A DNA stretch of 64,000 bases from Curvularia clavata. Lineage: Eukaryota. The position numbers and the translations under genes are program-made. The notes below the pieces were generated by a model, which saw only the letters and a program-made list of their open reading frames with translations, did not search any database and was not told the DNA's origin. This document shows, in pieces, positions 1,150-34,845 of the stretch (positions within the stretch are counted from its first letter, which is position 1; each line of letters opens with the position of its first letter). The DNA lies in contig CP089280.1 of the NCBI GenBank assembly GCA_023920165.1, forward strand, positions 1,674,001 to 1,738,000, read 5' to 3'.

Positions 1150-3172
1150 GTAAACCCTACTGCCGGTGCGATAAGACGGCTGCCGTAAGATTCGACCCCT
1201 TCGCCGTTGGGCACGCACGCAGCCCAATGCGTGCATCACCCTCGCCTACCTCCATACAACCAGATGGACCGAGCCTGCACGTTGCAAGGCGTCTCCACAT
1301 TACGTGGCGCTTCGTATGCGACCTTTCGATCCTGCGTCATTGGCTGACATGGAGCCCTGGAGGCGATCCCGGATTCAGTTTCTCCGAAAGATCGCATGAC
1401 TTGCCTTAGTCTGGCGCGACGGGTCTAGCGGGTCCGCCGTCCATCAAAATTGCTCGACTTGGTATAGGCTTCACGGAGACCGTTACACTGGGAATTTGCG
1501 CCTCGCTTACCATTTTACACAAAATCTGGATAAAGTCATGGAATTCCCTGGATTCGACAACATGGGAAAAGCAGGTTGTACCATGATGACTGGGGTTAAG
1601 TTGTTGTGCCACCTCAGCAGACGCGACCACGGAGTTTAGTCGGAGCCGAGATCGTCACAGTGGGCAAGGGGGAAGAAGAAGAAAAAAACAGCACATCGTT
1701 TGGTTCGCAACGCTGTCAACCAACCAGTGTCCGGTGACACCAAATTTTCATCGGTTCCTGAGTTGGCAGGGCGTTAGGGAGCGTTCGGGAGCGGAACATG
1801 CCTTTTTTTTCGCGGTACGACAAACTCCCACCTTTGGCTCGTGGCAGCAAACCAGAGGCTCCGAAATGCCGGGTCTCGCCGACGCCGGTGTGGGGGGCGC
1901 TGTTACACATTTGCATCGAGCAATCATTCTCCCGTAGCCCTATGGGGGTTACTATGTACCGCGGAGAGGCTGGGCCACGTTGGTCTAAGAGAAATGCTTC
2001 AAAGCTAACTTTTAGGAATTTTTTCTCCTCTTCATTTCCGAAGCGGGATTTTTTTTTGTTATTGTGCGCATATTAGCGAGGGTTTTGTCGGTGTGCAGGA
2101 GTTTTTTTCTTCTTGTCTATTTTTGATTGGGCTTTCGCGGCATGAGCATGGAAAGGGCGTTTTTCTGTGTGTTGGTGTGTCTATGTGTGCGGCGCATATG
2201 GACGGTCAAGCGCTGACCGCTTCTTTTGCTTTTTTTCGCTTCTCACCATTTCTCGACTCTTCTTCTTGGCATTTTTTGCGAATAAGCGATGCAATTCAGA
2301 GTCGCGGCTACAAAGCGTGCGTTTTTATCTTCTGATATTGTTTATATCCTAAAGACTGGAAAAATATAGGCGCGAGCCTTGGCGGTGAGCAAATAGCACC
2401 CAGATTGAGTGTGCGACTAAGATAGAAATTACTGAGTCTCTGACATATATGAGTACCAGTGTCCATAGGATTGTGATATTTTAAATTTGTATATCGGTGT
2501 GTGTGTGAATGTATACAATATTTCTATTCTACAGAAATGAATAGTATTGGTTGAAAGACAGTTGTTCAGCACCTGGTATACGCTCCCCCCTTTCCCACCT
2601 TCAACGTTACACAACGTAAGAAAATAGGCAAACATAGATAAAGAATAGATACTCTCTCTCTCTCTGCACTCCAGTCAACCAGGTATATCCTTCTTTTGGG
2701 TCTATGCCAATCTAACGTGAACATTAGCCGCAAACTCGTATAATTGCATATGTAATACATTTTGACCGAAGGTGTTATTAACAAATAAATTATCACAATA
2801 GAGATAGATTGACATATTATATTGAAATATACATCTGGCCTCCCTCTCGTACTGCATTGCTTTGTGTACAACGTCCTCCTGCTCATCACACTCGGGACGG
2901 AAGCGGGGTTCTTACTCTTTGACATGTTACCTGTGTACCAACCAACCTTGATATTCCAGAATATCAGCACAGCTATCAAAACAATATATAATCGCAAAAG
3001 GGAACGTTTTCAGGCTCGTAACAATGCAGGCATGATATTTGCAGCTTTGCACATCCGTGAATTCTCGCCCATTCACCAAGTGCCAAAAAAATAAACCCCT
3101 TCATCCTCCTGGTTCAGCCGGACCACAACAACCCTATAGAGCCAGCAGAAGGACAAGAGAGCAAAAAAGAAG

Positions 3173-13945: not shown

Positions 13946-16900
13946 ATGGCTGAAGAAGACAGCCTCGCCGCCCTCCAGGGCCTCCACCGCGACCTTTGCG
14001 CCCACATCGACCTGCAGCTGCCGGTGCTCGAACGACTGCTGCTGAACCTCGAAGCGCATTTGGAAGAGCTCAAGACACTGCTGGACAAGAAACCGAAGAA
14101 CGACAAGAGCAGACAGGCTCTGGCTTCCGGTAAGTCGCCTGCCAGGCCGTGTGCAGAGATGAGTGCTGACCGCGCCAGGCAAGATCACCATTGACGACAA
14201 CGAGTACGAGGTCAATGATGACTTCAAGCAACAGACGCTCGAACTCGCCGATGCCCTGGATCTCGATGAACTGGATGCCGCCGCTCTCTTCCTCGGTGCC
14301 CAAAGCGAAGCCCGCGAGCTAGACCGCTCCCAGCTGCAGACGGCCGTAATCCGCTTCCACCGCCGCCGCGAGTATGTCCTTTTGTGCGTGCGCATCCTGA
14401 TGAAGACGGCCCTAGACAGCGACGATGCTAAGGTGGAGGGCCTGCCCGTACTGCAGGAGGCTGTCCAGATGATTGTGGGTGTGCACGGCACAACAAACTT
14501 GGCCAACGCATTTGGTTTCTGGGCCAAGTGCTTGACAAGCATGGAGGCAGTAGAGAGGTGGCTGCAATTCATTGCCGAGCGTGTGCAGAGCACTCAGGTC
14601 GTGGGGCAGGTACCGCTGCCGGGCTTCGTGGAGATTATGGATTTCCAGCGCCAGAGTCTGACTAGACAGCACGAGAATCTGGCCGCCATTTGCACCCACA
14701 TGATCAAGCCTGGATACGTCAATCTCGACAACTACAAATCGCTGCTTGCACGCGCCAAGTCACTCGATCGCCATGACCTCAATACAATTCACTACGTCCC
14801 TATCCTTCTCCGACTGACATCCTGGGTCGCCTCCGACAGCAATAATGTCACATTGAGGGAAGCGCGCAACTTGCACGACTCGCTGATGAGCGGGCGTGAA
14901 AGTGACAACTGGTTACTGAGAAATCTCCACGCGGCGACTCTCACGTGGTGGCTGGCTGAGTACAGTGGACGCTACATGGACCCCAATACCCAAGACCCCG
15001 CATTGCAAGGCATCAACTTTGAAGAAGAGGCCAATTCGCGATCTGATGTCTTCCTCAAGGCTCTTGGTGATGGCGCATTCCACTTCATGCTTTCAGTCAG
15101 CCAGGATGTGCGCCCAACGCGCTGGTATGACCCCCAAAAGACGAGCATGTTGTCAACGCTCCTGCAAGACACAGCCGTTCTCAGCCGAGACTCGGTGCAA
15201 CCTGAAGACTTTTTCAAGGAGCTCCTCATGGAGCAGCTGCAAACTTTCGTTGATTCCTTCATCACGCACATGCCGGATACACTACGTAAGCTAAAAGCCG
15301 AGGAAGACGATCAGCGCCGACGACTGCAACTCCACTTCCAGCGGTCGACCGGAGAGTACCCTCTTCATCTGGAACGATTCATGGTCATTGTGGCCTACGC
15401 ATTCGATGGCTTTCCCGATGCCGCCGAAGATTTCTGGAGCGACAAGGAAAGCAATCTGTACGGATTCCTACAATGGGCGGCCAAACGTCAACCTACCCCA
15501 CGGATAGCCATGTTTTGCGAGATGCTCCGAGCCATTGGTACTGGAGAGACAAATGCCGAGGCCGCTCATCGCTTCCTGCTTGAAGAGGGCGCGTCTGCCT
15601 CTGGCAAGATCCGTCGAACGAGCTCGCTAAGTTATACGACCATTTTCAACGAATTGTGCGAGTTCGAAAAGGACATCCACGAGCCGAAGAAGGCCATCCA
15701 AGCCGGAGTCTTTGCTGCCGCAACGAATCCGATAGACCAGATTGTGGAGCCGGAGAGTGCAACTATGCTAGAAAGCTACTTCCGACTCATTTCGCACATA
15801 TGCCGACAAAGCCCCACCGCCCGAAACTGGATACTCGAAGTGAAGGAATATGATTTCGCCAACATCTGCTTCGGTCTCTGCACTGACAAAGTCGAAAGCG
15901 GATTGCGCGCAGCTGCTTTTGACGCGCTCTCCGCCTTGATGGTAGGCAAGGATGCTGCCAGAGCAAATGCAATGTGGACCATGCTTGATGACTGGACGGT
16001 AAACGGCTTTTATACCGGTTCCAAGCAGAATAACACGCTCGGCGCTGCACCGAGGGACGATCTATGGCCTACGCTTGCAGATGGATACGACGAGTCGATT
16101 GCCCTGGTTCGCTTTCTTCATGCGCTAGTGGAACCATACCCCGAGAACGAAGGCCTCAACGACAGCCTGCCGTTCCCTGAAGGCTTAGGCTCTACGCGTA
16201 GAATGCCTGGTATCGAGAGCTATATCGACTTCGTCATGCAACAAGTTTTTGCAGAACGCTCTTTGGATGTACTTGATCCTCTGCAACGCAACGTCATGCG
16301 ATGGACATGTCTGCGTTTCATGGTAATCTGTCTCTCGACATTCAATGAGAACCTCGTCGTCTTTGCGAACAAGTCGAGCATACCCGTTGACGACGTAATT
16401 GATCCTTCGTCCCTCGCCATCTATGTCACGCTCCACCCATTCGCGCGCGTCATGGAGTGGCTGTTCAACGACAAAGTCCTCAAGGCCCTTTTCGCCGCCT
16501 CTCACCACGACGTCACCGAGGTCGATGCTGCCCTTTCAGATTCGCCCTTGATCCAATCTCTCATGTTGAGTATAGAGGTGATGGATCTGGTGATGAAGCT
16601 CCAGGCCACGTATTTGGACATTGTCAGACCAGTCTTGAAGCAGCAAACCACTTTCCAGCATTACCCAGTGTCTAATCTGTCTCTAGCATCGTTCGAGGAC
16701 GCAATCCTAAACAACCTTCAAATTGTTGTTGACCTCGGTCTTTACTGCGGCACAGGTCACGAGGCCTTGACCATTGCATCCCTTCAACTACTTGAGAAGA
16801 TGGCTTCTTCCCGCAAACTTGCAGTATCACCTGCAGGCTTTGGACAGCGATCTGGCCGCAGCAAAATTGTCGGCATCTTGGAGAAGGACAACGAAGCTGA

Positions 16901-19052
16901 GCGCATTGGCCGATCTCTCTCGAGTTTGATGCGATTCAGCGCCGAAGAGCTTGAGGCTGGCGAAGAAGCCTCTGGATACGTTGTCAAGCTTCGCATACTA
17001 GACTTCCTCAACAGCTGTCTGGCTGCTGTATCTCTCCGCCCGACCATTGCTCACATTCTTCTTGGTTTCTCTTGCGGAACAAACACTGTGCGAATTGCCG
17101 ACGACAGTCTGTGGTCCAATGGACAGGCCTTATTCCACAGCATTCTTCTCCTTGGCGTCGAATATCCTGATAACGATGGAGAACAATTCTTGGCCTGGAG
17201 ATCTGCAATCAAAACGCGGTGTTGGCAAGTGCTTCAGAAGTTGTGGCGCTCGCCACTGACCAGTGCGATAATCATGGAGGAGCTGCGTGACAATGAGTTA
17301 CTGTTCATTGAAGCGCCCCAACTTACCCCCATCACCCTCGACATACCCTGGGATGGAATGTCTCTAGCTCAAGGGCTCGAAGTCAACCCTAGCGACTATT
17401 CGGCATTCTTCTCGGGGCCACCGGCACTCGCCCTCCAGAATTTTCTCCAACGACGGGCCGCTTTTCTAGACTATGAGTCAAGGGAACTTCGTTTGACTGT
17501 CAAAGAAAACAGACCAACGATGAAATCGAGGATCCAGTCACTGCTTCTTGGCACTACCATAAGACCTGGCGAAGACGCTACGCCAAATCCCAACATTTTT
17601 GACTTGTTCGACTTCATAGAGTTGGTCTACCCAGAACGCGCTCTTCCAGATCAACACAGGTTCTTTGAAGGCGTGAATCTTGAATCATGTCAAGAAGACA
17701 AGGAGGGCTGTACTCTGTACTCGATACCATTGCTAGAACAAGTCATCCGCTTGAAGTTGAAGTACTGGAGAAAAGATGGCTTGCTGAAGGAGGAGGAGCA
17801 CGAAATAGCGCTCGCGGAACAGGCTGAGCTCTTGATGGCCATATTCGTGGACTGGAACCGTCGTACTCAGCTGATGCGCTACCATAAGGACATCCTTCAG
17901 TCATGGGTCCAGGTTGTGATGGTAGCCGTGCACAACTGCGATTTTGACAACGGGGCACGAAGCTCCTTCATCCTACAGACCTTGCAAGTCATTCTTCCGA
18001 AGCTTGAACAGTCATATGCCGCGGATATATTCACCGCTCTACAACTCGCCAGCCTCGCAGAGTCTCTCATTCAGAAAGTTGACTTTGAGTCTACAGCCTT
18101 CGACAAAACTGGTGACTTTGCCAATGACCGACTATCGCAGCTCTTCCGTGCTGCACTCCTGGGCATCTACAGCCCAGTTTCTACACCTGAACTGCGGGAG
18201 TACTGCTACCAGATTTGCTTCCGTTACATACATGGTACTTCCCAAAAGGCTACTCCAAACTCTGTTCTTGGCCGCCACACACTCAACGCGATCAGGAACT
18301 GCGGTAGCCATATGCTCGAAGTGATTTGCGACGATGCTTACAGCGGCCAAGGAACATGCAAGGTTTCCGCGCTCCTTCTTCTCAATGCATTCGTAGCAGT
18401 TGCAACTCGCCAGTCGTCAAAGTACATTCTCGAAAGCTTTGTTTCTCTCAACTTTGTCGGTGTACTTGTCGACAACATCAAGCACATTCCAGAGGAACTC
18501 CGCACAGCTATCGCATCGCAAGTGACCGTTCTCCTCTCATACTACGACGCTAGCCTTGCGCTCCTTCTCCGTATATGTCAGTCTCGTCTGGGAGCAGCGC
18601 ACGTGCTCAATGCAGGCCTCTTCCCAGCTATCCGCGAGTCTCATATCTTCTCCGTCGATCCAGACATTGGTCTCGAATTCGACGACCCAAATGCTTTACG
18701 CAAGTACTACCAGCTTATGTTGGCCGTACTACGTGTTATCAACGCTGCGGTTATCGCCAGGGGACGGCAAAATGATCAGACTGTGTTCCAGGCAAGGGAG
18801 TTCCTGAAGGACAACAGACACAGCATGGTCAGCGTCTTCAAGAGAAGTGTCAACGTCGGAGTCGGAGCAGGCGAAGAGATGCAACAGGACCTGGTAGACT
18901 TGGTGGATTGCTGGACGGTGTTGGTTGACGTGACTGGGTTCTTGCAGGTAAGCCATCGACATGACGGTGAAATTGTTCGACATGGAACTAATGTATTGCA
19001 GTACGAAGATGAGTCTAGTTTGAAGAGGGCGAGGCCGAGCATGTTCTCATAA
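13946..19052 (+). CDS. NUP192: Nucleoporin Nup192/Nup205 family
   Basis: ATG 13946 (MAEEDSLAALQGLHRDL), intron ~14130-14178, then a long helical ORF with YEVNDDFKQQTLELADALDLDELDAA and TLHPFARVMEWLFN, typical of fungal Nup192. A final short intron precedes YEDESSLKRARPSMFS*. Confidence 0.9.
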
Positions 19053-19786
19053 GCAGTACGCTTAATGAATGCTGCTATCTGGAGGATGAAATGATCATTT
19101 ATGCGCTTGATGGGAATATTTTGTTATGTAATGTGTAGAGAAAGCCGCTTTAAAAGCTTGTTCAACTTGGCCACCTTGCATTTCCTCCTATAATACGATG
19201 CTGAGCATTAAGTGTCCATGTGATATTGCTATGATTTCAAGAAAGACCACGCAAACAGGTGTTAGGAAAGATGCATATGCAAGGGAAATGCATGTCCAAC
19301 TCGTCTACTGACTGCGTGGCGCTCGGAAGAGCGCGCATCATTGTTACTCTTCGGATTGTCTCACCACCGTTTATATCCATTTCCCTAAGTCCCTATCCTT
19401 GTTGTTTACATGTTTAAAGAAAGCTAAAGAAGGGAGTTTCAATTGGACTTTCGAGTCCATGCAGTTGCCAGAGACGTAGTAGAGTTGGGAAAGTTAGTCG
19501 TGGTGCGACTATAAAATGTATATGATGAAGAGCTTGCTATTGATACTAAGTTGGAACAAAATTAATGACTACAAGTTCTTCAGGGCGGTACATTTCTGCA
19601 CGAGCAAAGAGAACGTGCGTGGACGCTTAGCACAAGTGTGATGCATGTGAGGAGTATCAAACGATTAACGAAAATGGGTATCGATACTGATGATGTACAA
19701 CTGTAGAAATTAAAAGAGACTGTGGTGTTACAGTGGTACTTTGTGGACAACCCCCATAGGACCTTGGTTTTTATAGCCACTGCCTC

Positions 19787-21668
19787 TTACCCGTCTTCAT
19801 CTTCGTTCCTCCATATTGATGCCGAATTATAATCAGAGGATTGCACTAAATCCACTAGATCGTTATGGATCTCCTCATTGCTCTGAGAAGACTGAGTGAT
19901 GTCGGTAATCTTTACTGGGGAGCTGACTGGTTCGGCAGAAGAGCTAGGGGCTTCGTCATTGAAGACATCAGATCTACGCTTCAAAGGGGAACCTTGTGGG
20001 CTTGATCCAGATTCGACACGAGCCCTCTTTTTCGCTAATGAACCTTTTGGACGGCCTCTCGGTCGCTTTAGTATAGCATTGTCATCGCGCGCTGGAGAAA
20101 TAGGATCTGTGTTTGACCTTGGAGGAGTGCTCAAGCTACTCTTTAACGAGCCACCAATTGGTTTAGCCCAGTCGAGAATTTGTCTGATCTTCCGACTAGG
20201 CTGATCAACGGTGGTGGAGGGACTCGGGTTCAAAGTTTCTATGATAGCTGCCTGTGTGGCTTCAAATACCATAACCTCATCATCAAACTCGGTCGCTTGT
20301 TCTTCAGGCAAAGATTTTGGGTCTTCCTTTGGTTTCATGAGACCCTTGCGATGCAGGATTTGTCTAGGGCCAGATCCCTCTGCTTGACCTGATCTGTCGG
20401 CGTCGTCACTGCTCTTCCTCTTTCCAGGCCTTTTTGGAAAATCACCACTTTCCACTCTGGCGCGCAGCTCGTCCGTAGAAGGAAATGCTCTGGTGGCGGC
20501 CCACTCAGGGAGCTTGCTAGCGAAATTTTTCCACATTGCACGTTGTGACACTGCGATTGGTGCAGGACACTTGTAAAAATCCGTCCGATGATTCGCATTA
20601 TCCAAACCAGCTTCTATGCAGTTCAGGCAACGAAAGAGGGTCTTGTCATATCGATTTGGGCACTGTGAAGTTGCTCCTGGACCTGGATGCTTTTGGGCAC
20701 AAACGATGCATGGCCAACTCTCTTCTTTAGATAAGTTGGCGTTGGGGCACTTTGTGTATTCTAGCGTGTGATCCGGACGACCACATCTTAGGCAGAACTG
20801 AGGCGTGCCTCGAGGGTCGTACGCCCTAGACTCAGTCAGTATGCCAGTTGTGTGTGTGTGTGTGTGTGTGTGTGTCAGGCTAGACTCACATTGCTAATGC
20901 ATGGTCGCCCGAAAAGAAAAGAGGCTGCTGACAGGCCTTCATAGCCTCACCAGGGTCCATAAATCCCCACAAGAACCTCTGTTGTGTGTACTTGACCTCG
21001 TTGATATCGAGGCCAGTATCACGCTTCATCGAAGCAAGGTAGTCCTTGCAGTTCTTAAGGTACTCATTGGCCAAATTGTATTCGTTTAGTATAACCCAAT
21101 ACATTTCGGGCTTGCGTTTTGAGTGCCATGGTGTAAGGCCGAGCTTTACCATCAAAGTAGCAAAATTGTTGTCTTGAATCAGTTGCTCATAGATCGGGCG
21201 CGACTGGGTAGTAAGATGCAGTTCTTTCGTGTGATGATACACTCGGACGGATGTTATCTGGTTATATGGTTCGCTCAGCGATCTCAACCTCTTCAGAACT
21301 CCTTCAGGTCCTAAATCCGAAATTTTAGGAAAGTCCTTCTCACCAAGTACGATGCTGATCCTGGGAAGAATGGCTTTCAGTGCGCGGGTTGGTGCCGGGT
21401 TCGGGTCGCGTTCTAGGCTTTTGGAGATTTTCTTTAATCGATTTACTTCTTCAGTCATGGTGTTCATAGCTTTGTTGAGCTGAGCTGCAATTGCGGCTGA
21501 TAGCTCTTTCAGCTTCGCCTCGATTACTCGCTCGACTGCTTGTTCCAAACCCTGTTGGACAAGAATCTCTGGGTGTAATGCGTTTCCAACATGTTGTTGG
21601 GAACAGGTATTCGGGGTTTAGTCTGCGGTGTGGCTTGTAGAAGCGGAAGATTTGTCTGGGAGATTCAT
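19787..21668 (-). CDS. Spliced LINE ORF1/gag-like protein: coiled coil, three CCHC-type zinc knuckles, AT-hook; in-frame TAA at codon 17 if ATG 21668 is used, alternative ATG 21467
   Basis: ORF 21548-20886 joins the downstream frame through intron 20889-20826 (GTGAGT...ACTGAC...CTAG). This gives AMAYDPRGTPQF-CLRCGRPDHTLEYTKC...CIVCAQKHPGPGATSQC...CLNCIEAGLDNANHRTDFYKCP, in frame with ORF 20605-19787, which contains KRPRGRPKGS. Confidence 0.8.
20849..20875. repeat. (GT)n microsatellite inside the intron of the gag-like gene
   Basis: Uninterrupted TG dinucleotide run. Confidence 0.95.
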
Positions 21669-23165
21669 CTTGCCTACAAAGTTGAAAGTTGAAGACTTCT
21701 CAAAAATAAGAGAGTTTTGAGGATGAATTTTGTGGTGTTCGTGCTGTCGGACCTTAAAGAATTGTGAGGACTGCTTCCTGGCGATAATCAGTGAATTGCG
21801 GATCGAGTAACAGCAGCTGGAATTATATCTAACTTATATTGCAATGGCATCCATCACGATAATGACTATGCCTTCACCTCTGTGGCGCAATTTCTTCCAC
21901 CTAGATAGGTAAAGCATTGATGGAAGACTTTTCAGCGCTGTGCCCATCTCGTATTGTTGGTGGGGAGGGCGGCCCGTAAGAATCAGATCTCAATCCAACT
22001 CTAGGAAGCAATCATTGGACCCATCTTTACCCCTAGTAATCCAATTTTACCATCCTAGAGGCTATAATTATAGCGCTCGAAACTTATCTATGTCTCTCTG
22101 GATGTACATGATGCTATGCGAAATCATTTCGTGGTGAAGGTCACCATCTGCGTCCTAACAGAGCAATACCCAATACTTGCCCCAATAAACTCTAATCGCT
22201 TCCCAAACTATGAAGTTATCAGAACCTTGTTTTTTTCTTTTGACTCGGGGTTGAGCATTGTTGATCAATATCAGCGTACATAGCAATCCGCGGAAAGCTG
22301 ATAGGTGCCCCTATTAACATCTCATATCCTTGCATGTTTACTACTCCTGTATCGGAGGAGGTGATCTGGCAGTTCCGTGCGCCACAGAGATTTCATGGCG
22401 CTCCATCACCAGGGTTCATCGCCTATGTTGTTTGATTCGCTGCCAAAGCTTAATTTCGCTTGGTCACAATCCCTCGCCACCACTCACGAAAAAGCTGTCC
22501 ATGGGGTACTGACTCACCTAACTATCGTGTGAGTTCAAACGCTGTAAAATGTCTACGAAGACTCATGTCAGATGCCTCTAGGAGATGATTATCACAATAG
22601 TAAGAAAAAAAAATGAGTATGGGTAGAGTGATACAGTCTCGAGTGTTTGCAATGGCCTCTGGTTTCCCGTTGGGAATGTGTTTAAAGTTTCAAGATTCGT
22701 ATGTAGTACGTATCTAGCTTGGCTTGGCCTGGCTTGATCCCCACATCACACGACTTGCCTTGATAATCTTGACCTGGCCTAGTCATTGATAGGCCGGGCT
22801 TTCGGATGTTACCTATCATTCATTGTTTCTTCCGCAACGCCTCTTTTAACTTTGATATATGCCTGCAAAACACCACGTGCAGTTTGGACATGGAGTTTGT
22901 AAAAGGTCTGAGGCCATCTAGCTTCCAATTCTGGCGGGTGGGTGATCAGTCATTGTTGAGTAAAGGTGCCAGTCAATTTGTATCTAATCCTTGTCGTTTA
23001 TACGTGATTTGCCAAACCCACCACGTATCTGTTACGAAAAAGGGGGATCAATTGAGGCTAACAAGCCGTGAATCAGACGTTCAACTCCGTGCTGTGCATA
23101 TGCTCATTGCCTTGCGGAATTGACTTAAAAGCTGCGGTTTCCCACTTCACAGCTTCTCTTGTTTC

Positions 23166-23357
23166 ATGTCACATAATTCATTCGCATACGGGCCCATCCA
23201 GCGATTTCTGACCAGCATGACAGAGACTTCACAACAGCAAACACGAGAGAAAGAATATACTTGCAACAAGGGGAAGGGACCCAGCAGCAACAGCAATGAT
23301 AAGGGAAAAACGAAGAAGAAGAAGAAGAAGAAGAAGAAGAAGAAGAAGAAGAAGAAG

Positions 23358-23388
<31 letters not shown>

Positions 23389-26300
23389 CTCGGGTGAGCT
23401 GAGGCTGCTGTCTCATCCTAACGTATGTGGGTTGACTGATGTTTGTTTAGAAGCCAGAGCCCCTCGCAAAGGTCAGTATTTGCTACAATCCAGCTTTCTC
23501 TGTTGAATGATTAATAGAAAATTGACCCAGGGCAATCTCAAGTTCATGCGAAACCAGTTGACTCTGAAAAACGCAAACTTGGGCCGGGACGAAAATGGCT
23601 AGCTGATTTGCAGCCAGGTCACTCCCTGAAGACAGAGGTTCTAGAGGACGGACAATGCTTTCTCGTATCGGTCCAAATGAGATCTGCCAAACCGCGCCTC
23701 CAAAGCCTCTTCAACTGGGTAAAGACACTGTCTAGACCGCCCGATGTTATCGCCATCCAGGATCCTCCTTTGCAGCTCGCTTATAGCTCCTTGCCATCGT
23801 ACCAGACATGGTTTCGCGGAGACGACGGCGAAGGTAATCCTGTTAGCATCGGAGAGAAAGATCACCCTTATCACTGCGACTATATTCCCCCGTACCCGAA
23901 AGCTCATGAAAAGCTGGCTATGAAGCAGCACTCTAAGACCCAGCCGGACGGGTGTAAGCAGCTGGCCAAAATTGCGTTTTTGGTGCATAGTTCCATCCAG
24001 GAATGGAATGTTTCTGAGCCTTCGCACGGCCCCAATCGAGGCTTGGTCGCAACATTGCATATTGCCCTCGCCCGAGGTTCACTCAACATCCACAACTTCT
24101 ACAATCACAATCACCCAAATGGGCGGCTAGACGTCGAGGAACTTTTGAAGCCCTGCGGCAACAATCAAGATGCCCATATAGTCGTTGGTGACAGCAACCT
24201 ACAACACCCTCTCTGGAGTCCTCACGCCGAAGGACAGAATGCTCATAAAAAGGCCAAAGATCTCGTAGCAGCAATGGAGGCCACGAATATGGTATGCAAG
24301 AACGATGGCTCCCTTACCTTCGCTCGTGGCAATCGCAGCGGTGGTGAATATGCATCTTCGATCGACATCATCTTGGCAAGCGGGTTCCTGGGTGACCAAT
24401 CCTGCTACGAAGTCCTCGATGTCCACGGGTACGAAAGCGACCATGCTGTCACTTCGTTGAAAGTCGACATGGATCTAGACCGCAAAATGGGCCTAAAGTT
24501 CTTCTGGGATGAGACTAATGAAGCATTGTATAGCAGAGATGTGGCTCACCATGTCAATACGTTGGCTCTTCCCTCAAATCCCAACAGGGCCGACTTAACG
24601 CACGCGCTGGAGGGTTTTCGAAAGATCATCTATGGAGCAATCGAGAAACATGTACCCGTCCGGCATGTTTTCGAAAACACTCATGCCAAAAAGTCTACTA
24701 TGTCTATCTCTAGCGCCATAAGGACGGCAAATTGGCGGAGGGCTGTAGAGCGCAAATCGGAGGACCCTCAAGGCGTTCATTCTTTAGCTAAAAGAGCTAT
24801 CCTATGGGGCTCGCCAAGACCGCCAAAATGTACTCCGGATTTTGTACCAGCTCCAGACAAAGTAATCACGGACAACAACGAGAAGGTGAAATGTTACGTG
24901 GAGGCGATTTGGACTCGCACCAGGTACAAAGGCCCCCCCAGAAAACTGCCAACCGATAGCGCCTTTTCAAAAAGATATGTAAGTACACTCAGGCACCGTT
25001 AATTCAATATTTGGTGTCACTGCCAGCTGAATGAAAACAGGCTACGGTTGACAGTAGCGGGACGACTCACACAGCCCAAACGCATACTTCCTCCACGGAT
25101 ACATCTCAATTTCCGTTGCCGTTTCTTCATCCATCTAGGAAACAGCATTTCTCTGATATAAAAGTAGAAGAGGGCGAGGTCGCAAGCCTACTGAAAGGCG
25201 CACCACATCGCAAGGCTTGTGGAGATGATGGTATTCCGTTTGAAGCATTGAAAATGTGTGCCAAGGTCATAATACCTACCCTGACTTGGATCTTTCAAAC
25301 GTGCCTTGATCTGCGCTTACATCCCGACAGTTTCAAGGACTGCATTACCTTCGTCATCCAAAAGCCTGGAAAGGATGCATCACTGCCTAAATCTTACAGG
25401 CCGATCGCGGTTCTGAACACACTGGCAAAACTTCTGGAGCGTATAATAGCTGATCGATTAAAGGCACTTGTTCTTGAAGTGGAAGGTATGCTTCCGTTCA
25501 CACAGTTTGGTGCACCAGGTCGTAGTACGACTCTTGCTGTAGAGTTGTTGACTACGAAAGTTTACAGCGGGTGGATACAAGACAAGAAGGCCAGTCTCCT
25601 TGGTCTCGATCTCACTGGTGCGTATGATCACATCGACCGTATAAAATTACTAGATAAACTAATATCGCTTGGCATACCTGACTGGCTGATCGAGATTATA
25701 TGGTCTTTTTTGTCTAATCGCCGCAGCTATATTCACCTTCCTGGTTACGACGGTGAGGAGTACTATATAGACGTTGGCGTTCCTCAGGGGAGTCCACTCT
25801 CTTCGCTCCTGTTCTTGTTCTATGCGGCGCCCCTGCTGGAGCACTTGGCTAAGGACTATGCTGCCGCAACGCTCTTTTCTTACGTTGATGATACCTATAT
25901 CCTCGTAGTCACGTACTCATACCGCGAAAACATCCGCGTTATGGGTGTCATCCACGACCGGCTTTACAACTGGGCAGAGCAGAACGGCATGCGCTTTTCA
26001 CCCACCAAGTATCATATCATGCACTTTGTTAAGCCGTGCACGCGTGTTGACGAAGCTGGTTGCGAGTTACTGCCTTCTATGATTGGTTTCGAGAATTTGA
26101 CTCAAGACGAAAAAGATAACATTCTACAACCGACCATGACTATCCTTGGAGTAGTGTTCGACCAACGACTCTCTTGGGTTGATCATGCAAACTATGTAAG
26201 CCGCAAACCATACCACCCATCATTTACTTACGTATCAACAGATTGTAGGGAAGATTAGGAAGAAGCTGAAGACCTATCAACGCTTTTCTCGGTCAACATG

Positions 26301-27342
26301 GGGCATCACAGTACAAAAACGATACAACCTTTATCATCAACACCTCCTTCCGATCGTTACCTACGCATGCGCCGGCTGGTTTCTCACTGATCCACCGAAC
26401 GAAAAGCGTCATGGGAAACTGAGTTATGGAATTTCCAAATCCGCCATCGATACTCTGGAATCCCTCCAAACAGAGATCCTTCTTTTCCTCTCGAAAGCTT
26501 GGAAACGAACCCCTAGGCAATTAATTGAGAACGAAATGCACATCAGACCGATTGTCTTGAAGCTACATGAGGTCGCAATGAATCACCGTTGCAGAAAACT
26601 GGACTCAAACGAGCATGAGTTTATGCGAAAGACTAGAGGTTTTTGCGAAGTAAAAGGACAAAGAAAGCACCCTCATGACCAAATGGACCGGGTGGTAAGG
26701 AATTATGTGCGCCAAATCTGGGATTACAAGTCGCTTCATTTCGGAGAGGCAGACTGTGAGCGATGTTGGGCAAAACCAGCAACGCGGAAAAAGTGGATCA
26801 AAGATTTCTTCGACCTCGAGCTCTTCGTGGAAGCCAAGGCACAGTTCACCTTCTGGTTACATGTTCAAGCAATCCCGCGTTCAGCAGTTTGGAAGTTCGC
26901 ACAGCCAGCATACCAAGCCAATTACGGCGAGCATACTTTGCATCTGTATTTTGGTTTGGATACCGCCCAGCAAACAATGCTTTTGGGTATGCGCACTGGG
27001 AATCTCGGTGTCAATGCTAATCCAGTCTTCCGCAACGCCATAAAAAGCAAGAACATGAGCTGCCCAAAGTGCGGAGCAACTCTCCATACTGTCAAACATC
27101 TCTTATGCGAGTGTCCGGCTCTAAGCAGGGCGAGGACATATTTGACGGGAGCCGCTGGACACAACGATTTCAACTTGTTCATGAATCGCGATACTGAGCT
27201 CGCGACATCATGGGCCATTGCGCACTTTGGTCTGTCGCAGTTCGATTCGGTCAAGAACAAAAAGAAATACCAATTTCCTCAAAAGCCAAAGGTTGTGCGT
27301 GACGGGATTTTACTAGATGAGAGACAAGGACTCGCCACGTAG
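23166..27342 (+). CDS. Five-exon non-LTR-type APE endonuclease-reverse transcriptase-CCHC protein (~1321 aa)
   Basis: Exons 23166-23393, 23451-23471, 23518-24978, 25041-26195 and 26242-27342. All four introns are GT-AG and phase 0, and splicing gives one open frame. APE motifs DVIAIQDP, HNFYN, VVGDSNLQHPLW, SSIDII, ESDH; RT motifs YRPIAVLNTLAKLLE, LDLTGAYD, GVPQGSPLS, YVDD; thumb STWG...LY...PIVTYACAGW; C-terminal CPKCGATLHTVKHLLCECP. Confidence 0.92.
23313..23387 (+). repeat. (AAG)25 trinucleotide repeat encoding poly-lysine in exon 1 of the RT gene
   Basis: 75 nt of perfect AAG in frame with ATG 23166, ending two codons before donor GTGAGC at 23394. Confidence 0.9.
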
Positions 27343-27636
27343 CATTAATACTATCCTGTTGTCATATCCGGCTTCGGCCTTTTGCGAAACATTTTGAGAA
27401 ACACTTTGGGTTTCATTTTTTATATTTGAATCAAACTTAACGAATACAGTTCGTAAGTATGCTAAGGTAGGTGTTTTTCGAACCGTTTAATGGCTGACTG
27501 CTGTTAGAGACCCAGCCTCCGCAACGCTACATCGGTAAGGAGACGTCTGGTAAGTGAATCGTACCCAGCTGGTCTATAAGGTATACAAGGGAAGACTAAC
27601 GACTATGCAGTCCGTCGTACCCTGCGATTTTATCAG

Positions 27637-28366
27637 TTAACAGGAATTGAAAGGCATGTCGTCCAACCTCTCCCTTACGTCCACCATCTCAACATCCTCC
27701 ATCTCCATGTCGCCGTCCCCATCCACGTCACCATCGTCGTCGCCATCGCCGTCCATGTCTACCTCCGCGTCCGTGTCCGTGTCGTCGTCCGACCGGCGTA
27801 GTCTCGACCGGATGAAATAGAGCGTTGCACCCATCCAAGCCACGCTTTTGTATGTTGATACTTTATCGATTCCACTGAAATATGCAAATATTGACTACTG
27901 CAGCGGATGCCATAACGCTGCCTCCATGTCCATGCACCCATCTGCGATAGCCTTCCTGATCTCATGGGTGTTGTATCCCAGCCATAACCAAACGTCCGGA
28001 GCAGGCAGCCTTGCCGTGTTCTTCTCAATCAACCGGTAGCTGAAGTCGTAAATTCGTAAGAATCATAGCTAAGAACTAGGGTCTATCAAGTATAATAATG
28101 AGATTGATAGTTGATGCGTCTTGCCTATTGATGAGCGCGATCTCCCGGCCTCGCGACTGTCGCAGCTGTATTATATCCACCTGGCATGTATGGCATAGAA
28201 TATAGTCGTCATTGTCGGGCATAGTCGTATCCAGAAAGTTGAGCCATTCAAAGAGCCACTTCTGTAGCTCTGTAGCAACTTTACTTGAGAGCGGCTCATA
28301 GAGAGCAGGCCGGGCGTCCAAAGAGAGAGTGACGGGGACTACCCGTTGTCCGGAGAGATTGGACAT
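27637..28366 (-). pseudogene. Possible degenerate small gene of unknown function
   Basis: Protein-like stretches MSNLSGQRVVPVTLSLD...QKWLFEWLNFL and YRLIEKNTARLPAPDVWLWLGY...HPLQ*SIFAYF...WMGATLYFIRSRL with an acidic tail. They are broken by stops and a frame change, and I found no clean splice solution. Confidence 0.3.
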
Positions 28367-29403
28367 GGTTGGTGTGTAGGATTCCTTTACATTTGTGCAC
28401 TTGTTAACGATTCTAACTTCAGATCTGAATTTGAAGAAGACTGAAGAAAGAGATGGGATGAGCTGAGTGTGCGATGCCGTCGATGGATTTTGCCGAGCTG
28501 GAGATTGAGTGTAAGGGTTATTTTCTGTAGGATCGCTAAGAGTGCTGACTTTCAAAGTCACAAGAGCAGAAGAGCAGGTATTTGTAGGCAGTGTGCGCTG
28601 CTCTGATGCTATGGTAAAGGATCACCAATTTGCTTTTGCACCAACCATTTACTTACAATGAATAGTGTCCTCATCACAACCACGGTTCGACAACTTCAGG
28701 GTTTTCTCTGCCCGTTGTTGGCCGCCCAATGGGCTTCTGCCCATTGGAGTGTAAGTTCATTTATTATTTGTCAACCCACCGATGAAGTGCATACTTATAT
28801 TGTCCAGTATTGTTGTTGTTCTGATTTGGATCTGTACCACATTTTGGATTCGACACGTGAAGCCGAAGGCACTGGAGCCTGAGGCACGGGAGCTTGAGTA
28901 AGTATCCGAAACTCTAGACAGCCTCCCCTATTCATACTGAGATCTATACAGGGCCTCGCGTTCGAATCCCCCCTTGGACATAGTCCTTTTTTGAATTTTT
29001 GAATTTTGGTGGGCTGAGGGGCGGCCTGCCTTTGTTTTGAGACCACTTTTTGATGTTGGCCAATCGCCACAGGCGAGCCAGTTATGAGAAACAAAAACAG
29101 AAATAAATAACCACGGGCCCCTCCCGTGAAAAGAAAACTCCTCACCTCTTCCCTATGCAGTTTCATGCGTGAAATGTTGATGCCTATGCCAAGCCACAGT
29201 GTACCATGGATAGCTTTACTAGTACCCCGCCTGGTCAATATGTGGCCCCAGCATCATCATAAATACTCTCTTCCTGTATTGTCTTCGGCCCATCACTATG
29301 ATACTCACGACTTTAATTCAAATCCGGACAATCCTATCGAGCCATTGAGATCTTCCTAGTTCAACCGGCAATCCTTCGAGGACGCTGCACACCTTCACCG
29401 AGC

Positions 29404-30885
29404 ATGTCGCCATTATTTCGACTACCACGAGAGCTACGAGATATCATTTACGACTTCTATATCCGCTGTGACGGCGGCTACGTGTATAACGCAGAGACCC
29501 AAAAATTCAGGAGGGCTGATGGGGATCCGATTTCCTGTGCACTAGCCCTCACCTGTCGACAAGCTGCGTCTGAGCTGGAAGGACTGGCTTTTCAAGTGAA
29601 CCCAATCACATTCTCGTCTACTCCTATTAGCTCTTTGCGTGAGCAGGTGGCGCTACATCATGAAGTAGCTTGCGCATTCGCCGAAAATGGTTATTTTTTG
29701 ATCTCTCAAACAGGCCGCTTTTTGGTGACGCAAGAGATGCGTGAACGAGTAGCAGAGGCCTATCCCCAATTCGCACCATACCTCGAGATTTGGTTGAAAG
29801 AAAGGGTCCTCGGAGACCGTTGGGGTTGGGAATGGGACTATACTGTTGGTGAAGCTCGATCTATCTGGTGCGATTTTCAGCGGTTCCTAGCGCAGCTTAT
29901 CTCAAGGCACCCAGCCTTGCACGAGACGATCAAGGCTTTACCCGCAAACTCAGGCATTTATATGCCTTCTGTCGATTTGCTACAACGTGATGATATAAAC
30001 TTCGAGCCCTGGCGCATCTACGACAAAACCGAGCTTGAGCGTTTGTCAAACATGCTGTCTTTCTGCCCAATACCCTGGGGTCGGATTCATCCTGAAACGA
30101 AGCTCACATATTCCGCTGCTTCAACAGCTCTTCAGTTTCTCAATAAATGCACCAGGAAGGTCCGAAAACATATTCGCAAAATCATTTTGATCGAGAACAA
30201 GGTTTTAACTGGGAGGTCCGAGAGCTATGGCCGTGGCTTTATACCATTTTGTCGGGAAAACAGATGTCTACATGTGGAACGCCGGGTAAACCTCTGGAGA
30301 ACGGTATTCGGACCTACTTCTGGAGACCAGGCTACTTATACCTTTGGCTGGACTGAGTGGGACGCTAGGCAATTCAAGAACGAACGTCTACGGGCTAGAG
30401 ATGTCACACGGTCAGTTGGAAAATGGATGACTGAGGCTTTGGCATTACCTTCGCTAGGAATGCCCGAGGAATCGTACACCCTTGTCTTCGATGGCAATCC
30501 AGTACCGGAACTGTCTTCGAAGGTCTTCCGCATAATCCAGCGGGATGCCGCCTGGCAAGCTGCGCTTGACGCCTGTTATTCTCGCGGTTTGTTTCCAGAG
30601 GTTTCTTGGCAAATCGGCCGTCGGCAAAACAAGTGCTACCAATTTGAGGGATTACCGGAAGTAATGCAGATGCTCCTGACCGGCAGTAGCTCTCTAATCC
30701 AATGCAATTTTGATCTCGGTGCACCATACGACGTCGAACAGATTCTTGAAGACCATCGCGGTTGGGATTGGGCAACATGGTCTGAATCATGGTCATCACA
30801 CGAGCCGAGCACTTTCCAAACGGAACCGCCATTGCCGCCATGGCATAAGTGGTGTTGGAAGCAATATTACGGTTATTATGATTAG
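29404..30885 (+). CDS. Intronless fungal hypothetical protein with an N-terminal F-box-like motif
   Basis: 493-aa ORF starting MSPLFRLPRELRDIIYDFY, followed by ALALTCRQ. This pattern is typical of expanded ascomycete-specific families; function unknown. Confidence 0.8.
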   Translation: MSPLFRLPRELRDIIYDFYIRCDGGYVYNAETQKFRRADGDPISCALALTCRQAASELEGLAFQVNPITFSSTPISSLREQVALHHEVACAFAENGYFLISQTGRFLVTQEMRERVAEAYPQFAPYLEIWLKERVLGDRWGWEWDYTVGEARSIWCDFQRFLAQLISRHPALHETIKALPANSGIYMPSVDLLQRDDINFEPWRIYDKTELERLSNMLSFCPIPWGRIHPETKLTYSAASTALQFLNKCTRKVRKHIRKIILIENKVLTGRSESYGRGFIPFCRENRCLHVERRVNLWRTVFGPTSGDQATYTFGWTEWDARQFKNERLRARDVTRSVGKWMTEALALPSLGMPEESYTLVFDGNPVPELSSKVFRIIQRDAAWQAALDACYSRGLFPEVSWQIGRRQNKCYQFEGLPEVMQMLLTGSSSLIQCNFDLGAPYDVEQILEDHRGWDWATWSESWSSHEPSTFQTEPPLPPWHKWCWKQYYGYYD

Positions 30886-31679
30886 TTTTCTTTTATCGCT
30901 TGGTCTGGGAATCTGGATTGGGTGGCTTCCAGCAATGTGGCTCTTTATTTGCGGTGACTTATATCAGCCCTAGAATCTAGATAGGAGGATTTAATCTGCT
31001 GAGTTCACATTTTCTTTGCTTATTCCCAAAACTCAAATCATTACCCTCCTGGAGCCAATGCTAGGAGCGACAGAATTCGTCTGGTCAGCAAAACATCCCA
31101 TTGGAGGATGGCTGCATCTCATGCAGTACGATTACATCGACAAATATTTATTTCATGTAGCGCATAATAACAGACTATATTTTACTGAGCGCGCAATGTA
31201 GTGAGAATAACACCGTTGTGTTAACATAAACGGATAATCATGCCGAAACAGTTCGACAGATTCGTCTACACAGGCTCACGTCATTGGTTTTGATGTAGAT
31301 TGTGACAGTAGATTTAGGTCTGCAGTCAATGTGTATGATAATGAGATTGATATGCAAGCAGTAAAATTCAATGTGCTCGTATCCCCTGGCGAAGAGCGCA
31401 GGACATGGCATTGATCTGCAGCCCGAGATTTGGCATATATATTGTCTGACCAAGGTTGTTGCACGGGAGGATATAGTGCCAGAACAAACCACAAAATTCT
31501 AAGTCCGGGCGTGAGAGGTAGTGTTGGACTGGTGACATGACATGGCACGTGCACCGTGTCGTGTTGCGTCGTGTCATGTCGCGTCGTGCCGCCTCGTATC
31601 ACGTCACGAGTGGAAAACCAATATTCCCTCCGTAGCTGGCTTCTTAATACTGAAGCATTAGATCTCTGCACATCTCACA

Positions 31680-32620
31680 ATGCACTCTGAAGAATTCCCG
31701 GGTTTCGAGCTGGTCAGTACCGACGGCAGTTTACTCGACAATGGAAAGGCGACGGCTGTTGCTGGCACAGGCGTTTACTTTGGTCCCAACGACCACAGGT
31801 GAGCACTGTTCTGTCCGACCATGCCATCACGCTCCACTCCTAACCAGCACGTATGTAGAAACTATAGCGAGCCTTTGGGACCAGGCCCGCAGACCAACCA
31901 ACGTGCGGAGCTCAAAGGCGTCTTGAAGGTGTTGCAAATACTGCCCGTCACACAGAATGTGCTAATTGAATCTGATTCTACATATGCTATCATGTGCGTG
32001 ACAGAATGGTATCCCAAGTGGGAGTTGAAAAGCTGGCAGAAGTTCGAAGGCAAGAAGTACAACAACATGGATCTAATCAAGCGCACTGTTCAGTTGTTAG
32101 AAAAGCGCGACGCAATAGGTACCAAAACCTATTTTCGTTGGGTCAAGGGTCACTCGGGCAATCCAGGCAATGAAGCGGCTGACAAGCTGGCTGGTGAAGG
32201 AGCACGGTATGTTTTACAATTGCCATAAACTTGACTAGAATTGAGTGCCAACACAAGCATACCAGGCGCGAACACGTACGACTCTACGGCGAACCCCAAG
32301 AGAAGAGACCTCAGAAGAAGAACCCACAGTTTATTCAGTCTGGCGTCCCATTCGGCTACAAGGTAGTAAGACTTCCAAATGGGCAAGAAGATCTAGAGCG
32401 TGATCAAAACCAAGTAGACAGGTACATACAAGACGGAAAGGCGAGAGCAGAAGAGAGAAAGAGGAAGTGGAAGAAGGTCTCGGAGAATAGACGTTGTAGG
32501 GGAGGAAGTGCAGCACAGCGGGTGGCAATCAAGGCAGCCAAAGCAAACAAAGCTTCCAAGGCGGACCACGAAGAAGCAACTCCAGATCCAGCATCAAATA
32601 ATACCACAGTATACTCCTAG
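31680..32620 (+). CDS. Stand-alone ribonuclease H (RNase HI-type catalytic domain) with a probable basic C-terminal extension
   Basis: ATG 31680; exon 1 VSTDGSLLDNG...GTGVYFGPNDH; intron 31799-31858; then NYSEPLGPGPQTNQRAEL, IESDSTYA, WVKGHSGNPGNEAADKLA (D-E-D-H-D set intact). A 32-nt GTATGT...CTAG intron (32207-32238) would add ORF 32240-32620 in frame; otherwise the gene stops at 32228. Confidence 0.9.
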
Positions 32621-32877
32621 TGTGCAAACATCCATTGATTCATCCATTCCGGTTTTGCGTTTTACGTCCAGAGGCTCGGTTCTCAACACTTCAGGTTCGT
32701 CAGTAGAAATGACTCCCAAATGCGACACACAAGGAACCTAAGCTACAGGATTGAGTTTTCGTGCTATTCTTCACTTCTGTAATACAAATCATATGAATAG
32801 GCTAGTTATGTCCAGATAGTCAAAACAACTAAAACTGAGTGCAATTCCATTAATCTCCCTCTATTCTAAACCCAAAT

Positions 32878-34845
32878 CTATACTTCTAATAAGCTCTTCA
32901 CTTCCTTGACCAGCAGCCGATCCTCAGCTGCCGTTGCTTGAACATTACCCATAGTACCCGCTGCGTCCATGACCCTCCATAGGTCTCTCAGCTCACCGTT
33001 CATATCAGCCCCATACACCAGCCATCCAACGCTGATGACACCCATCTTCTTGTTGTCGCTCCACTGCTCTTCAGTGCTGATGTTTTCGAGCAGCGAAGCG
33101 AGAAGCTCTACCTGCTCGGCATCTGGAAGTTCAGACTCTGAAGGCAAAGAAGGCGAGGTGTTGGCCGTGTACTTCTTCATCCGTATTTGATGGTTGGAAG
33201 AGGTGATGTTCATTGCCAAGTTGAGCGCCGAGGCCTTGAGCGCGGGGTGTTTCTCATCGAGAAGGGCCGTGGTCAGGATTGAGATCAGAGTCGATGAGAC
33301 GGGCGGCGAAAGAAGGTGTGGTATGAAGAGAGGCGAAGAAAAAAGGTTACATGCGAGATGCAAGGTCGTGAGTCGGAGGGGATATGGCGCGCTATCACCC
33401 AGTTTGTCTACGTGGTCTAGTAGATGGTGTACCGTGGCCGGTGTGCCCGTCGCACCTTTGTGCTCTTCTGCGAAGAACCCAGCGACACGGGCATCGGTAA
33501 GAGAAATTCTAAGCAGATCCAGGGCAGTGAACAGAAGCTCGGTTGGGAGTACCGTTGTACTTTTCCTCAAAAATTCGGCAAATTTCGGGAGTTCAGTAAG
33601 CGGAGCCTCAATAGCTCCTGATTTCTCGCGGACCTGGATGTAAGATACAATGGCTGAAACGGCAGGGTCGTTTCCGCTGTCTCCCATCTTCGCAACCAGC
33701 TTGTCCAATGGTGGTACCTTGGTAAATCTGATAGGTCTTTGGCTCTGCCGCATGAGCAAAGGTGTGCTTTTGTCCAGATGCGGGTGCGGGGGGAATGCCG
33801 TATTGAGCAGCATCTCTACGTTGCTACGGAGCTGCCTGGGGTCGGCTCCACTCCATTCGTCTCTTTTCTCGCCCTTGAGGTAAGTGATGAAGGTCGGCGT
33901 CGCACGAACGTTGGGATAGCGACTATTGATCGAGCCCTCTGCGTGGCTGAAATCAATTTTGATGAAGACACACTTTGCTCCTGCTTCAGCAGCAAGTTCG
34001 TCGTATGGCTGGTATACAAGCTTGCAAGGAGCACATGTTGAGCTTGTGAAGAATATGATAGCGCAACGGTCCTTGGCGAGGCCCAGCAAGCGATCCAAGT
34101 CTGTTAGTGCCGTGATGTTGTTAACCTTGCCGGTGCTCATCTCTATTTCAGTCATATTACGGTTGGAGGAAGCTGCTGCTGTCGTTCCGTTCGTAGTACT
34201 CCCACCAGAAGGTTGTACTTGGCCCGCCTGAGGTGTAGGTGCCTGTACAATGGGTCTCATCGCGGCATCAATCTGTGGTTTCAGCATTTGGCCAAATGGT
34301 GTGTTGAGAACAGTTTGCGGGAGAGAGGTAATGTGATCTGGTATTCCCTTGCCAACAAGGAACATGGCGAAATCGTTGGAGAAGTTGTTGCAGTTATGCG
34401 CGAATAGATCGTATGACTGCATCTGTGTTAATTCATGTATTTGAAATCTTTATCCAAATTCACTTACCTCGGGTGTATATATCTTCTTCAGGGACTCTAG
34501 ATACTCTAGGATCACTTCCATGGGAAGCGCAGTCTGCCCAAGCTTGATGATTTCCATAGGCCGTCCATGATGGGTCTGCCCCGCTCTACACGTCTGCACT
34601 CCTTGTCCAAAGTAATACTCTATGCCACCAAAGACGATGGAGGTGTGGTATACGGCATCGATTTGTATTCCAAGGAACGACTGAGACATGCTCTTCGCAA
34701 GACCCTAACAACATTAGAACCAGTTTTCTATGACACGCTTGCACAGTAGCAGCGATGCGCTTTTCGGGATCAAGAGATCAGATTATGCCACTTTATGACA
34801 GGCACTTACTTGGGAAAGGTCATACACGTATAGTTCTACGTCCAT
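32878..34845 (-). CDS. PPPDE/DeSI desumoylating isopeptidase fused to thioredoxin-like and PUL domains
   Basis: Spliced MDVELYVYDLSQ-GLAKSMSQSFLG...YHTSIV (catalytic His)...YDLFAHNCNNFS (catalytic Cys); thioredoxin-like TCAPC...ATPTF; helical PUL-like C-terminus. Confidence 0.9.

Follow-up and report, generated by a model that had tools for sequence, protein, structure and literature searches.

Within a 64-kb window of the genome of Curvularia clavata strain yc1106 (Pleosporales), we analysed an island of three separate spliced genes (19787-32620, in window coordinates). A gag-like gene, resembling the first open reading frame (ORF1) of a long interspersed nuclear element (LINE), lies on the minus strand; a gene with apurinic/apyrimidinic endonuclease (APE), reverse transcriptase (RT) and CCHC domains and a stand-alone RNase H gene lie on the plus strand, where Pfam finds Exo_endo_phos_2 (PF14529, 3.4e-12), RVT_1 (PF00078, 1e-30) and RNase_H (PF00075, 1.1e-25). 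On one side is the NUP192 gene (open reading frame (ORF) 14163-19052; Pfam Nup192, 1559 bits), and on the other a minus-strand gene (ORF 32878-34449) with Peptidase_C97 (PPPDE/DeSI), Thioredoxin and PUL domains; both face the island with their 3' ends. The neighbourhood is gene-dense, with about 50% GC and a housekeeping gene on either side. A preliminary description of the window had placed the three genes between NUP192 and the DeSI gene, and their positions, strands and flanks are borne out by Pfam, the sequence and RNA. Its view that they are organised as spliced nuclear genes, which could not be copied as a single sense mRNA, likewise stands.

Four sequencing runs were compared with positions 19000-33000: two RNA assemblies (X1 and X10), a metatranscriptome (X9) and a DNA run (X11). 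X1 and X10 behave as RNA assemblies because their contigs are without introns, the intergenic DNA is bare and one contig ends in an A-run followed by adapter at 27366. The RNA evidence consists of assembled contigs, and a ranking of isoforms by abundance is beyond their reach. X9 matched in scattered pieces only and was given no weight, nor were regions left uncovered in every run. The splicing predicted for the gag, RT and RNase H genes is seen directly, GT..AG introns of all three being removed in the X1 and X10 contigs, and all three genes are transcribed.

The coding sequence of the RT gene lies in three ORF pieces, which join through the GT..AG introns 24979-25040 and 26196-26241. Homologues span both junctions with zero residues lost, and residues 30-529, 532-916 and 916-1272 of one of them (P0002) correspond to the three pieces. 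The RT active-site block, FSYVDDTY, does not vary, and a CCHC motif is conserved at the C-terminus. Among solved structures, human L1 ORF2p (7e-20) is the nearest relative, followed by R2. Relatives at 55-74% identity occur in Bipolaris maydis, Alternaria dauci, Parastagonospora nodorum, Pyrenophora teres and others, and the source names of RT relatives include ‘jockey’ and ‘X-element’. PF00075 is absent from the best 35 RT relatives and was seen only in relatives that are at most 33% identical.

The gene had been described as a spliced, intact APE-RT-CCHC gene. Its domains and introns are as stated, but its intactness is called into question by a frame-breaking splice in the RNA and a replaced endonuclease residue. 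In-silico removal of the 65-nt intron at 25266-25330 splits the frame into 633 and 659 residues, and keeping it gives 1290 residues from stop to stop. This splice is present in both RNA assemblies, and the contig-supported RT mRNA is thus frame-shifted. Assembled contigs lose minor isoforms, and therefore a productive form of the RT may still exist. The acceptor of the intron falls in a Ser codon, at a position occupied by His or Gln in six of eight homologues and by Ser in the two B. maydis models. Retention of the 24979-25040 intron introduces a stop codon. In the endonuclease, Gln replaces the first catalytic Asn, just before Met 23677, both in the window and in A. dauci; ten of ten other family members keep the Asn, and the GD.N, ID and SDH blocks are retained; we take these residues to correspond in position and role to those of L1 and APE1. 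Judging from the Asn to Gln replacement, the endonuclease is probably inactive in the Curvularia/Alternaria dauci sublineage.

Either of two ATG codons may start the RT protein. The one at 23217 opens a poly-Lys frame across (AAG)25, which the RNA-supported splice does not connect with the APE frame. The first in-frame ATG, at 23677, is the start of the B. maydis model, and a productive isoform from there is 1185 aa long. The (AAG)25 repeat is a perfect microsatellite (23312-23387) in the 5' region of the gene, and the N-terminus of the A. dauci model is also Lys-rich.

The gag-like gene runs from an ATG at 21668 to a stop codon at 19787-19789, with a full frame of 605 codons. Its protein is 100% identical to the deposited hypothetical protein yc1106_09114 (P0121) of C. 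clavata, which matches the minus-strand, spliced zinc-knuckle gene of the preliminary description. RNA contigs cover 19918-20824 and 21230-21740 and confirm the exon boundary at 20824. In this assembly an in-frame TAA stands at 21620-21618, 16 codons past the ATG, where X1 and X10 read CAA. Most of the N-terminal helix is lost through this TAA, a nonsense allele confined to a single strain.

LINE ORF1 proteins of one class combine a coiled coil, one or more RNA recognition motif (RRM) domains and CCHC knuckles. The gag protein is predicted to have a long N-terminal helix, two RRM-like domains, three CCHC-type knuckles (C-x2-C...H...C) and a disordered basic tail. In an AlphaFold2 (AF2) model built from 19 sequences, the predicted local distance difference test score (pLDDT) is above 85 over residues 30-330, with two beta-alpha-beta domains followed by the knuckles, and disorder after residue 330. 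A Foldseek search with this model gave no match at E <=1e-3; tandem RRM proteins lead the list at 3e-3, with the L1 ORF1p trimer at rank 14 (1.4e-2). Atlas neighbours of the protein include ZCCHC3-like and ‘X-element’ nucleic-acid-binding clusters, at low template modelling (TM) scores. Pfam gave no match for the gag protein and a weak zf-CCHC match alone for its B. maydis relative. Relatives at E <=0.001 number 23 among 1.84 billion representatives. We therefore call the gene ORF1-like by its predicted architecture rather than by shown homology. In Alternaria metachromatica, two different gag-like genes (J4E83_007225 and J4E83_007231) stand six locus tags apart, which suggests two paralogous modules side by side.

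The stand-alone RNase H gene has two introns (31799-31858 and 32207-32265), both spliced in X1 and in X10. The preliminary description had treated it as a detached piece of a LINE, and here the comparisons point elsewhere. The protein is 73% identical to its closest relative (P0170), 50-54% to proteins of Alternaria ethzedia and Ascochyta lentis and 47-50% to fungal cellular RNase H1, as against 41-45% to LINE RNase H domains and 27-36% to the domains of those LINEs that are nearest this RT. It resembles cellular RNase H1, and E. coli RNase HI, in retaining E48, D70, H124, D134 and the basic protrusion, with the first catalytic Asp in exon 1 as read from the sequence. It differs from cellular RNase H1 in having no N-terminal hybrid-binding domain (PF01693) and a basic C-terminal extension instead; exon 1 (39 aa) and exon 3 are without a Pfam match, and the closest relatives (P0170, P0171 and P0204) likewise are without PF01693. 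In a poorly resolved tree, the window protein falls in a small Pleosporales clade without the hybrid-binding domain (support 92/74), and the Tad-like LINE domains form a separate group (96/94). By its sequence, this RNase H is best classed with cellular RNase H1 and not as a detached LINE domain.

The layout recurs outside C. clavata. A metagenome scan returned 12 loci, of which L005 and L006 are one sequence. In L001 and in L005/L006, gag is a minus-strand gene that meets the RT gene head to head; these are all three of the loci that reach far enough upstream, and they represent two independent lineages. Frame-to-frame spacing between gag and RT is ~1.1-1.5 kb in L001 and L005. Of the other nine loci, some begin within ORF2 and the rest are distantly related (26-34% identity).

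Introns are conserved in position along with the gene order. The intron between the RT and C-terminal regions is in phase 0 and at the same residue in five of five lineages (window 46, L001 48, L003 47, L004 52 and L005 47 nt), and the gag intron, in phase 2, precedes the first knuckle by 10-11 residues in three of three (window 64, L001 61 and L005 47 nt). L005 also has a 68-nt phase-0 intron in the same APE-RT linker that holds 24979-25040 in the window. The remaining introns are lineage-specific, such as one within the APE domain of L005.

In annotated genomes, linkage was read from locus tags and protein identifiers, which give adjacency and tag spacing only. The gag and RT homologues are neighbours in two of three such genomes, as consecutive genes in A. 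dauci (ACET3X_004655/004654) and B. maydis (KAJ6207001/KAJ6207002). An RNase H without the hybrid-binding domain stands three tags from a gag-like gene in Ascochyta lentis (EKO04_006354/006357) and four tags from one in A. ethzedia (J4E87_007570/007574), that is, in both of the genomes where the two genes were identified. This spacing fits the window, where the RT gene and a further gene, orf522, separate gag from RNase H. The genes are therefore linked in other genomes, and in at least three genera the cluster appears to come with a separate gene for an RNase H1-type enzyme that has no hybrid-binding domain.

Pfam searches of ORFs flanking L001, L006, L007 and L008 gave nothing beyond a weak DUF7730 match. 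Downstream of the RT gene, L001 (7966-8763) and L005 (9310-9666) each carry a minus-strand ORF convergent with it. The two are 33% identical over 70 residues and match each other at 1e-7 to 9e-9; they belong to no Pfam family, and no homologous counterpart was found in the window.

The RT is under long-term purifying selection. Between lineages, the proportion of nonsynonymous differences in the RT exon (pN) is 0.27-0.36 against a saturated synonymous proportion (pS) of 0.71-0.86, in ten of ten pairs. The closely related loci L002 and L003 differ at 20 of 3124 sites, of which 12 are synonymous, 6 nonsynonymous, 1 intronic and 1 unscored, for an omega of ~0.15. The preliminary description had named two outcomes that would speak against its reading, unlinked homologues in other genomes and neutral evolution without transcription; what was found is recurrent linkage and a transcribed set of genes with a selected RT. 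Copy number in annotated genomes is low. In B. maydis and P. teres the homologue clusters have a single protein for each strain; in P. nodorum there is roughly one for each isolate, and some isolates may have two. A second copy is seen in one metagenome series, in which L007 (1-2252) is 90% identical to L004 (1225-3473). Repeat-induced point mutation (RIP) between these two was considered and rejected, the transitions being symmetric (C>T 40, T>C 41, G>A 39, A>G 27).

Signs of element boundaries were sought as well. There are no long terminal or terminal inverted repeats in the window, L001 or L006, no target-site duplication of at least 9 nt between 19053-19800 and 32601-32900, and no genomic A-run after the RT stop codon; neither the window nor L001/L006 showed any transposase-like gene.

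The RT mRNA is polyadenylated just past its stop codon, where an X10 contig has a loose end with the A-run and adapter noted above. After the stop codon follow, in order, a small GC hairpin (loop of 4-5 nt), U-rich sequence containing TGTGAAAC-like words, a CTAAC-like word, ACAG or CCAG, and a GTAAGT donor. By eye, the same order is found in the window (27369-27458), L001 (7715-7808), L005 (8430-8527), L004 (3255-3348), L007 and L003. Despite this common order, the flanks are barely alignable between lineages. RNA folding of the 3' flank gave non-significant z-scores (0.06-1.7) in five of five lineages, and the small local hairpin alone recurs.

Beyond the flank, RNA joints define a spliced transcript with introns at 27453-27507, 27850-27903, 28056-28110, 28613-28664, 28751-28807 and probably ~28897-28952. 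A protein-coding gene for this spliced transcript at 27.4-29.3 kb was rejected, since translation in three frames gave no long frame. In the DNA run X11, summed depth is raised over 27367-29270, with up to seven contigs carrying G>A and C>T variants and loose ends at 27367, 27451 and 27732-27804. This indicates a transition-mutated repeat family with its left edge at the poly(A) site of the RT mRNA. A highly expressed X1 transcript (depth 94; X10 depth 3.2) matches three short blocks of 28567-28845 with unrelated letters between them, and a paralogous gene elsewhere seems to share pieces of this region. No tRNA genes were found in a check prompted by a GTTCGAATCC-like string near 28960, and no Rfam family matches 19000-33000 at E <=1.

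Between this transcript and the RNase H gene lies orf522, which belongs by Atlas search to a large ascomycete family with no assigned function, distantly related to DUF7730/2EXR. In L008, a homologue (7e-20) follows a distant RT relative on its downstream side, at ~1.8 kb; the link between orf522 and the RT is the weaker because the family is very large. Elsewhere in the window, composition is unusual at 51001-53000 (GC 0.61-0.63, GC skew -0.26 to -0.32) and at 2001-3000 (GC 0.40).

Table 1. Features of the island and the evidence for each (window coordinates)
Feature	Position	Strand	Evidence and remarks
gag/ORF1-like gene	19787..21668	-	Sequence read, deposited protein, RNA contigs, AF2 model
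gag intron	20826..20889	-	64 nt, phase 2; GTGAGT..CTGAC..TAG with branch site CTGAC; (CA)n run inside
Divergent gag-RT spacer	21669..23216		gag RNA contig reaches 21740
RT 5' untranslated region intron	~22906-23076	+	171 nt; joint 22903>23075 in X1
APE-RT-CCHC gene	23217..27342	+	Pfam, homologues, RNA joints, in-silico splicing; at least 5 introns
RT intron	23472..23530	+	59 nt, N-terminal; joint in X1 and X10
RT intron	24979..25040	+	62 nt, phase 0, APE-RT linker; spliced in X10, retained in X1
RT intron	25266..25330	+	65 nt, within conserved RT coding sequence; joint in X1 and X10
RT intron	26196..26241	+	46 nt, phase 0; joint in X1 and X10
RT 3' flank	27343..27460	+	Poly(A) site ~27366, small GC hairpin, U-rich stretch, GTAAGT donor
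Spliced transcript without a long frame	27453..28952	+	RNA joints
orf522	29404..30885	+	493 aa from ATG; RNA contig 29739-30871
Stand-alone RNase H	31680..32620	+	273 aa; Pfam RNase_H 1.1e-25; RNA joints

We favour the view that these loci form an undescribed, Pleosporales-wide family of LINE-derived clusters, in which ORF1-like and APE-RT-CCHC genes diverge from a spacer of ~1.1-1.5 kb and each carry introns at sites conserved between lineages. A LINE origin of the gag and RT parts is indicated by the APE and RT domains, the match to L1 ORF2p and the helix, RRM-like and knuckle build of the gag protein. The reading we prefer for their present state, to which we would give about an even chance, is that they have been ordinary nuclear genes since an ancient inverted LINE insertion and make up a selected, trans-acting RT module with a recruited RNase H1 paralogue. 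Twin priming is the model by which L1 insertions acquire a 5' inversion. An ancestral LINE inserted in this way would have had its ORF1 flipped head to head with ORF2, and we favour this origin because 5' inversion at insertion gives exactly the head-to-head geometry. The inversion would have ended the life of the LINE as such and left both genes expressible. The ORF1-like protein could then bind RNA, the RT copy it and the separate RNase H remove the template, all in trans. The C. clavata copy itself looks attenuated because of the gag nonsense allele and the frame-breaking splice in the main RT mRNA. A more specific and tentative version of this reading, which we think may well be wrong, is a host RT system with an ORF1-like chaperone, an endonuclease-independent RT, the recruited RNase H and possibly orf522 as a partner. 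It would convert RNA to DNA in trans, for example in defence against RNA viruses or in repair, and would be regulated by splicing of the 65-nt intron.

The preliminary description had left the choice between a domesticated system and a new type of element. We lean to the former, while holding our belief in it no higher than evenly balanced, and the latter, as a still-mobile element, appears doubtful to us, though a serious rival. Such an ‘ambisense’ LINE would use a long plus-strand RNA, with antisense gag and unspliced RT, as its template, spliced mRNAs would supply the proteins, and RIP would limit its copies. Much of what weighs against domestication is what this rival would expect. Homologues diverge fast, the best RT match reaching just 74% identity and the best full-length gag match just 39%. 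Their spread is patchy, B. maydis being the sole Bipolaris among the RT matches listed. The flanks differ between lineages, those of L001 and L005/L006 sharing nothing with the 64-kb window beyond the island genes. Degenerate copies exist: L007 has in-frame stops at 589, 1418 and 1643 where L004 is open, and a B. maydis model flagged LOW QUALITY is another such copy. In P. nodorum and L001, the RT forms a single open frame (1223-1227 aa) that retains the catalytic Asn, like that of an active element; the frame is unbroken in both because the RT/C-terminal intron can be read through without a shift or a stop codon. The conserved order of elements after the RT stop, the retention of an intron in X1 and the multi-copy, transition-rich family in X11 that begins at 27367, where the RT mRNA is polyadenylated, also fit a mobile element. 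Two further points count against a selected host cluster: in A. burnsii the gag-like and RT homologues were found on different contigs, and among the differences listed within C. clavata nonsynonymous changes outnumber synonymous ones in RT (5:3), in gag (3 plus a stop/Gln difference to 1) and in RNase H (7:4). Against mobility stand the sense-strand introns, which have stayed in place while synonymous sites became saturated; any retrotransposition of spliced RNA would erase them. The unspliced RNA of the window, moreover, is unable to encode the RT, the RT is followed by no genomic A-tail, terminal repeats were not found, the island edges show no target-site duplication of at least 9 nt, and B. 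maydis and P. teres have about one copy per strain.

Preserved introns are equally what copying at the DNA level predicts, and gag, RT, orf522 and RNase H recur in similar order in distant genera with unrelated flanks. The cluster could on these grounds be cargo moved or duplicated as DNA, by a large DNA element or segmental duplication, so that its genes would travel together rather than function together. We consider this improbable, given the absence of element boundaries, terminal repeats and transposase-like genes in the window and L001/L006, and the position of the island in a gene-dense region of ~50% GC between the 3' ends of housekeeping genes. A chance neighbourhood, in which a decaying LINE remnant lies beside an unrelated host RNase H and other host genes, would account for the cellular type of the RNase H, for the defects of the C. 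clavata copy and, in view of the very large orf522 family, for some accidental adjacency. It is largely refuted because the gag-RT and gag-RNase H linkage is repeated in independent genera; conserved intron sites, purifying selection on the RT and robust expression also speak against it, and we regard it as very improbable.

LINE ORF2 proteins are known as selfish enzymes. If the clusters described here are functional, fungi would gain a nuclear RNA-to-DNA activity. If they are still mobile, they would break two rules of LINEs, a single sense bicistronic RNA and the lack of retained introns, and would represent a novel mode of single-copy persistence of a non-LTR element under RIP. Full-text literature searches gave no described case of an ORF1-like gene, an APE-RT gene and a separate RNase H gene kept as a cluster, nor did they turn up a report of a complete LINE toolkit domesticated in the form of linked genes that carry introns and are expressed. 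Searches under the locus tags of the island genes gave no papers, and the matched passages of PMC4522978 are unrelated to a gag/RT/RNase H layout.

The closest known systems are the fungal APE-type LINEs of the Tad1/I/jockey groups, which share with the island the order of APE, RT and C-terminal CCHC and, as far as the predicted build of the gag protein goes, a partner protein with RRM-like domains and CCHC knuckles. The island differs from them in the opposite-strand position of its ORF1 (window, L001 and L005/L006), in the conserved spliceosomal introns of both gag and RT, in an ORF2 without an RNase H domain, in having no genomic A-tail or target-site duplication, and in the occurrence of its genes at about one copy per genome in annotated relatives. 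Twin-primed L1 insertions likewise have an inverted 5' part, with ORF1 and ORF2 facing apart. In mammals, however, these are dead ends, whereas here a whole order of fungi has kept the arrangement, with expression and under selection. With domesticated retroelement genes such as L1TD1, which we take to be derived from ORF1, the fungal rvt genes and telomerase, the island shares a low-copy, intron-bearing and selected coding sequence, and if functional it would be a natural case of a retroelement turned into host genes.

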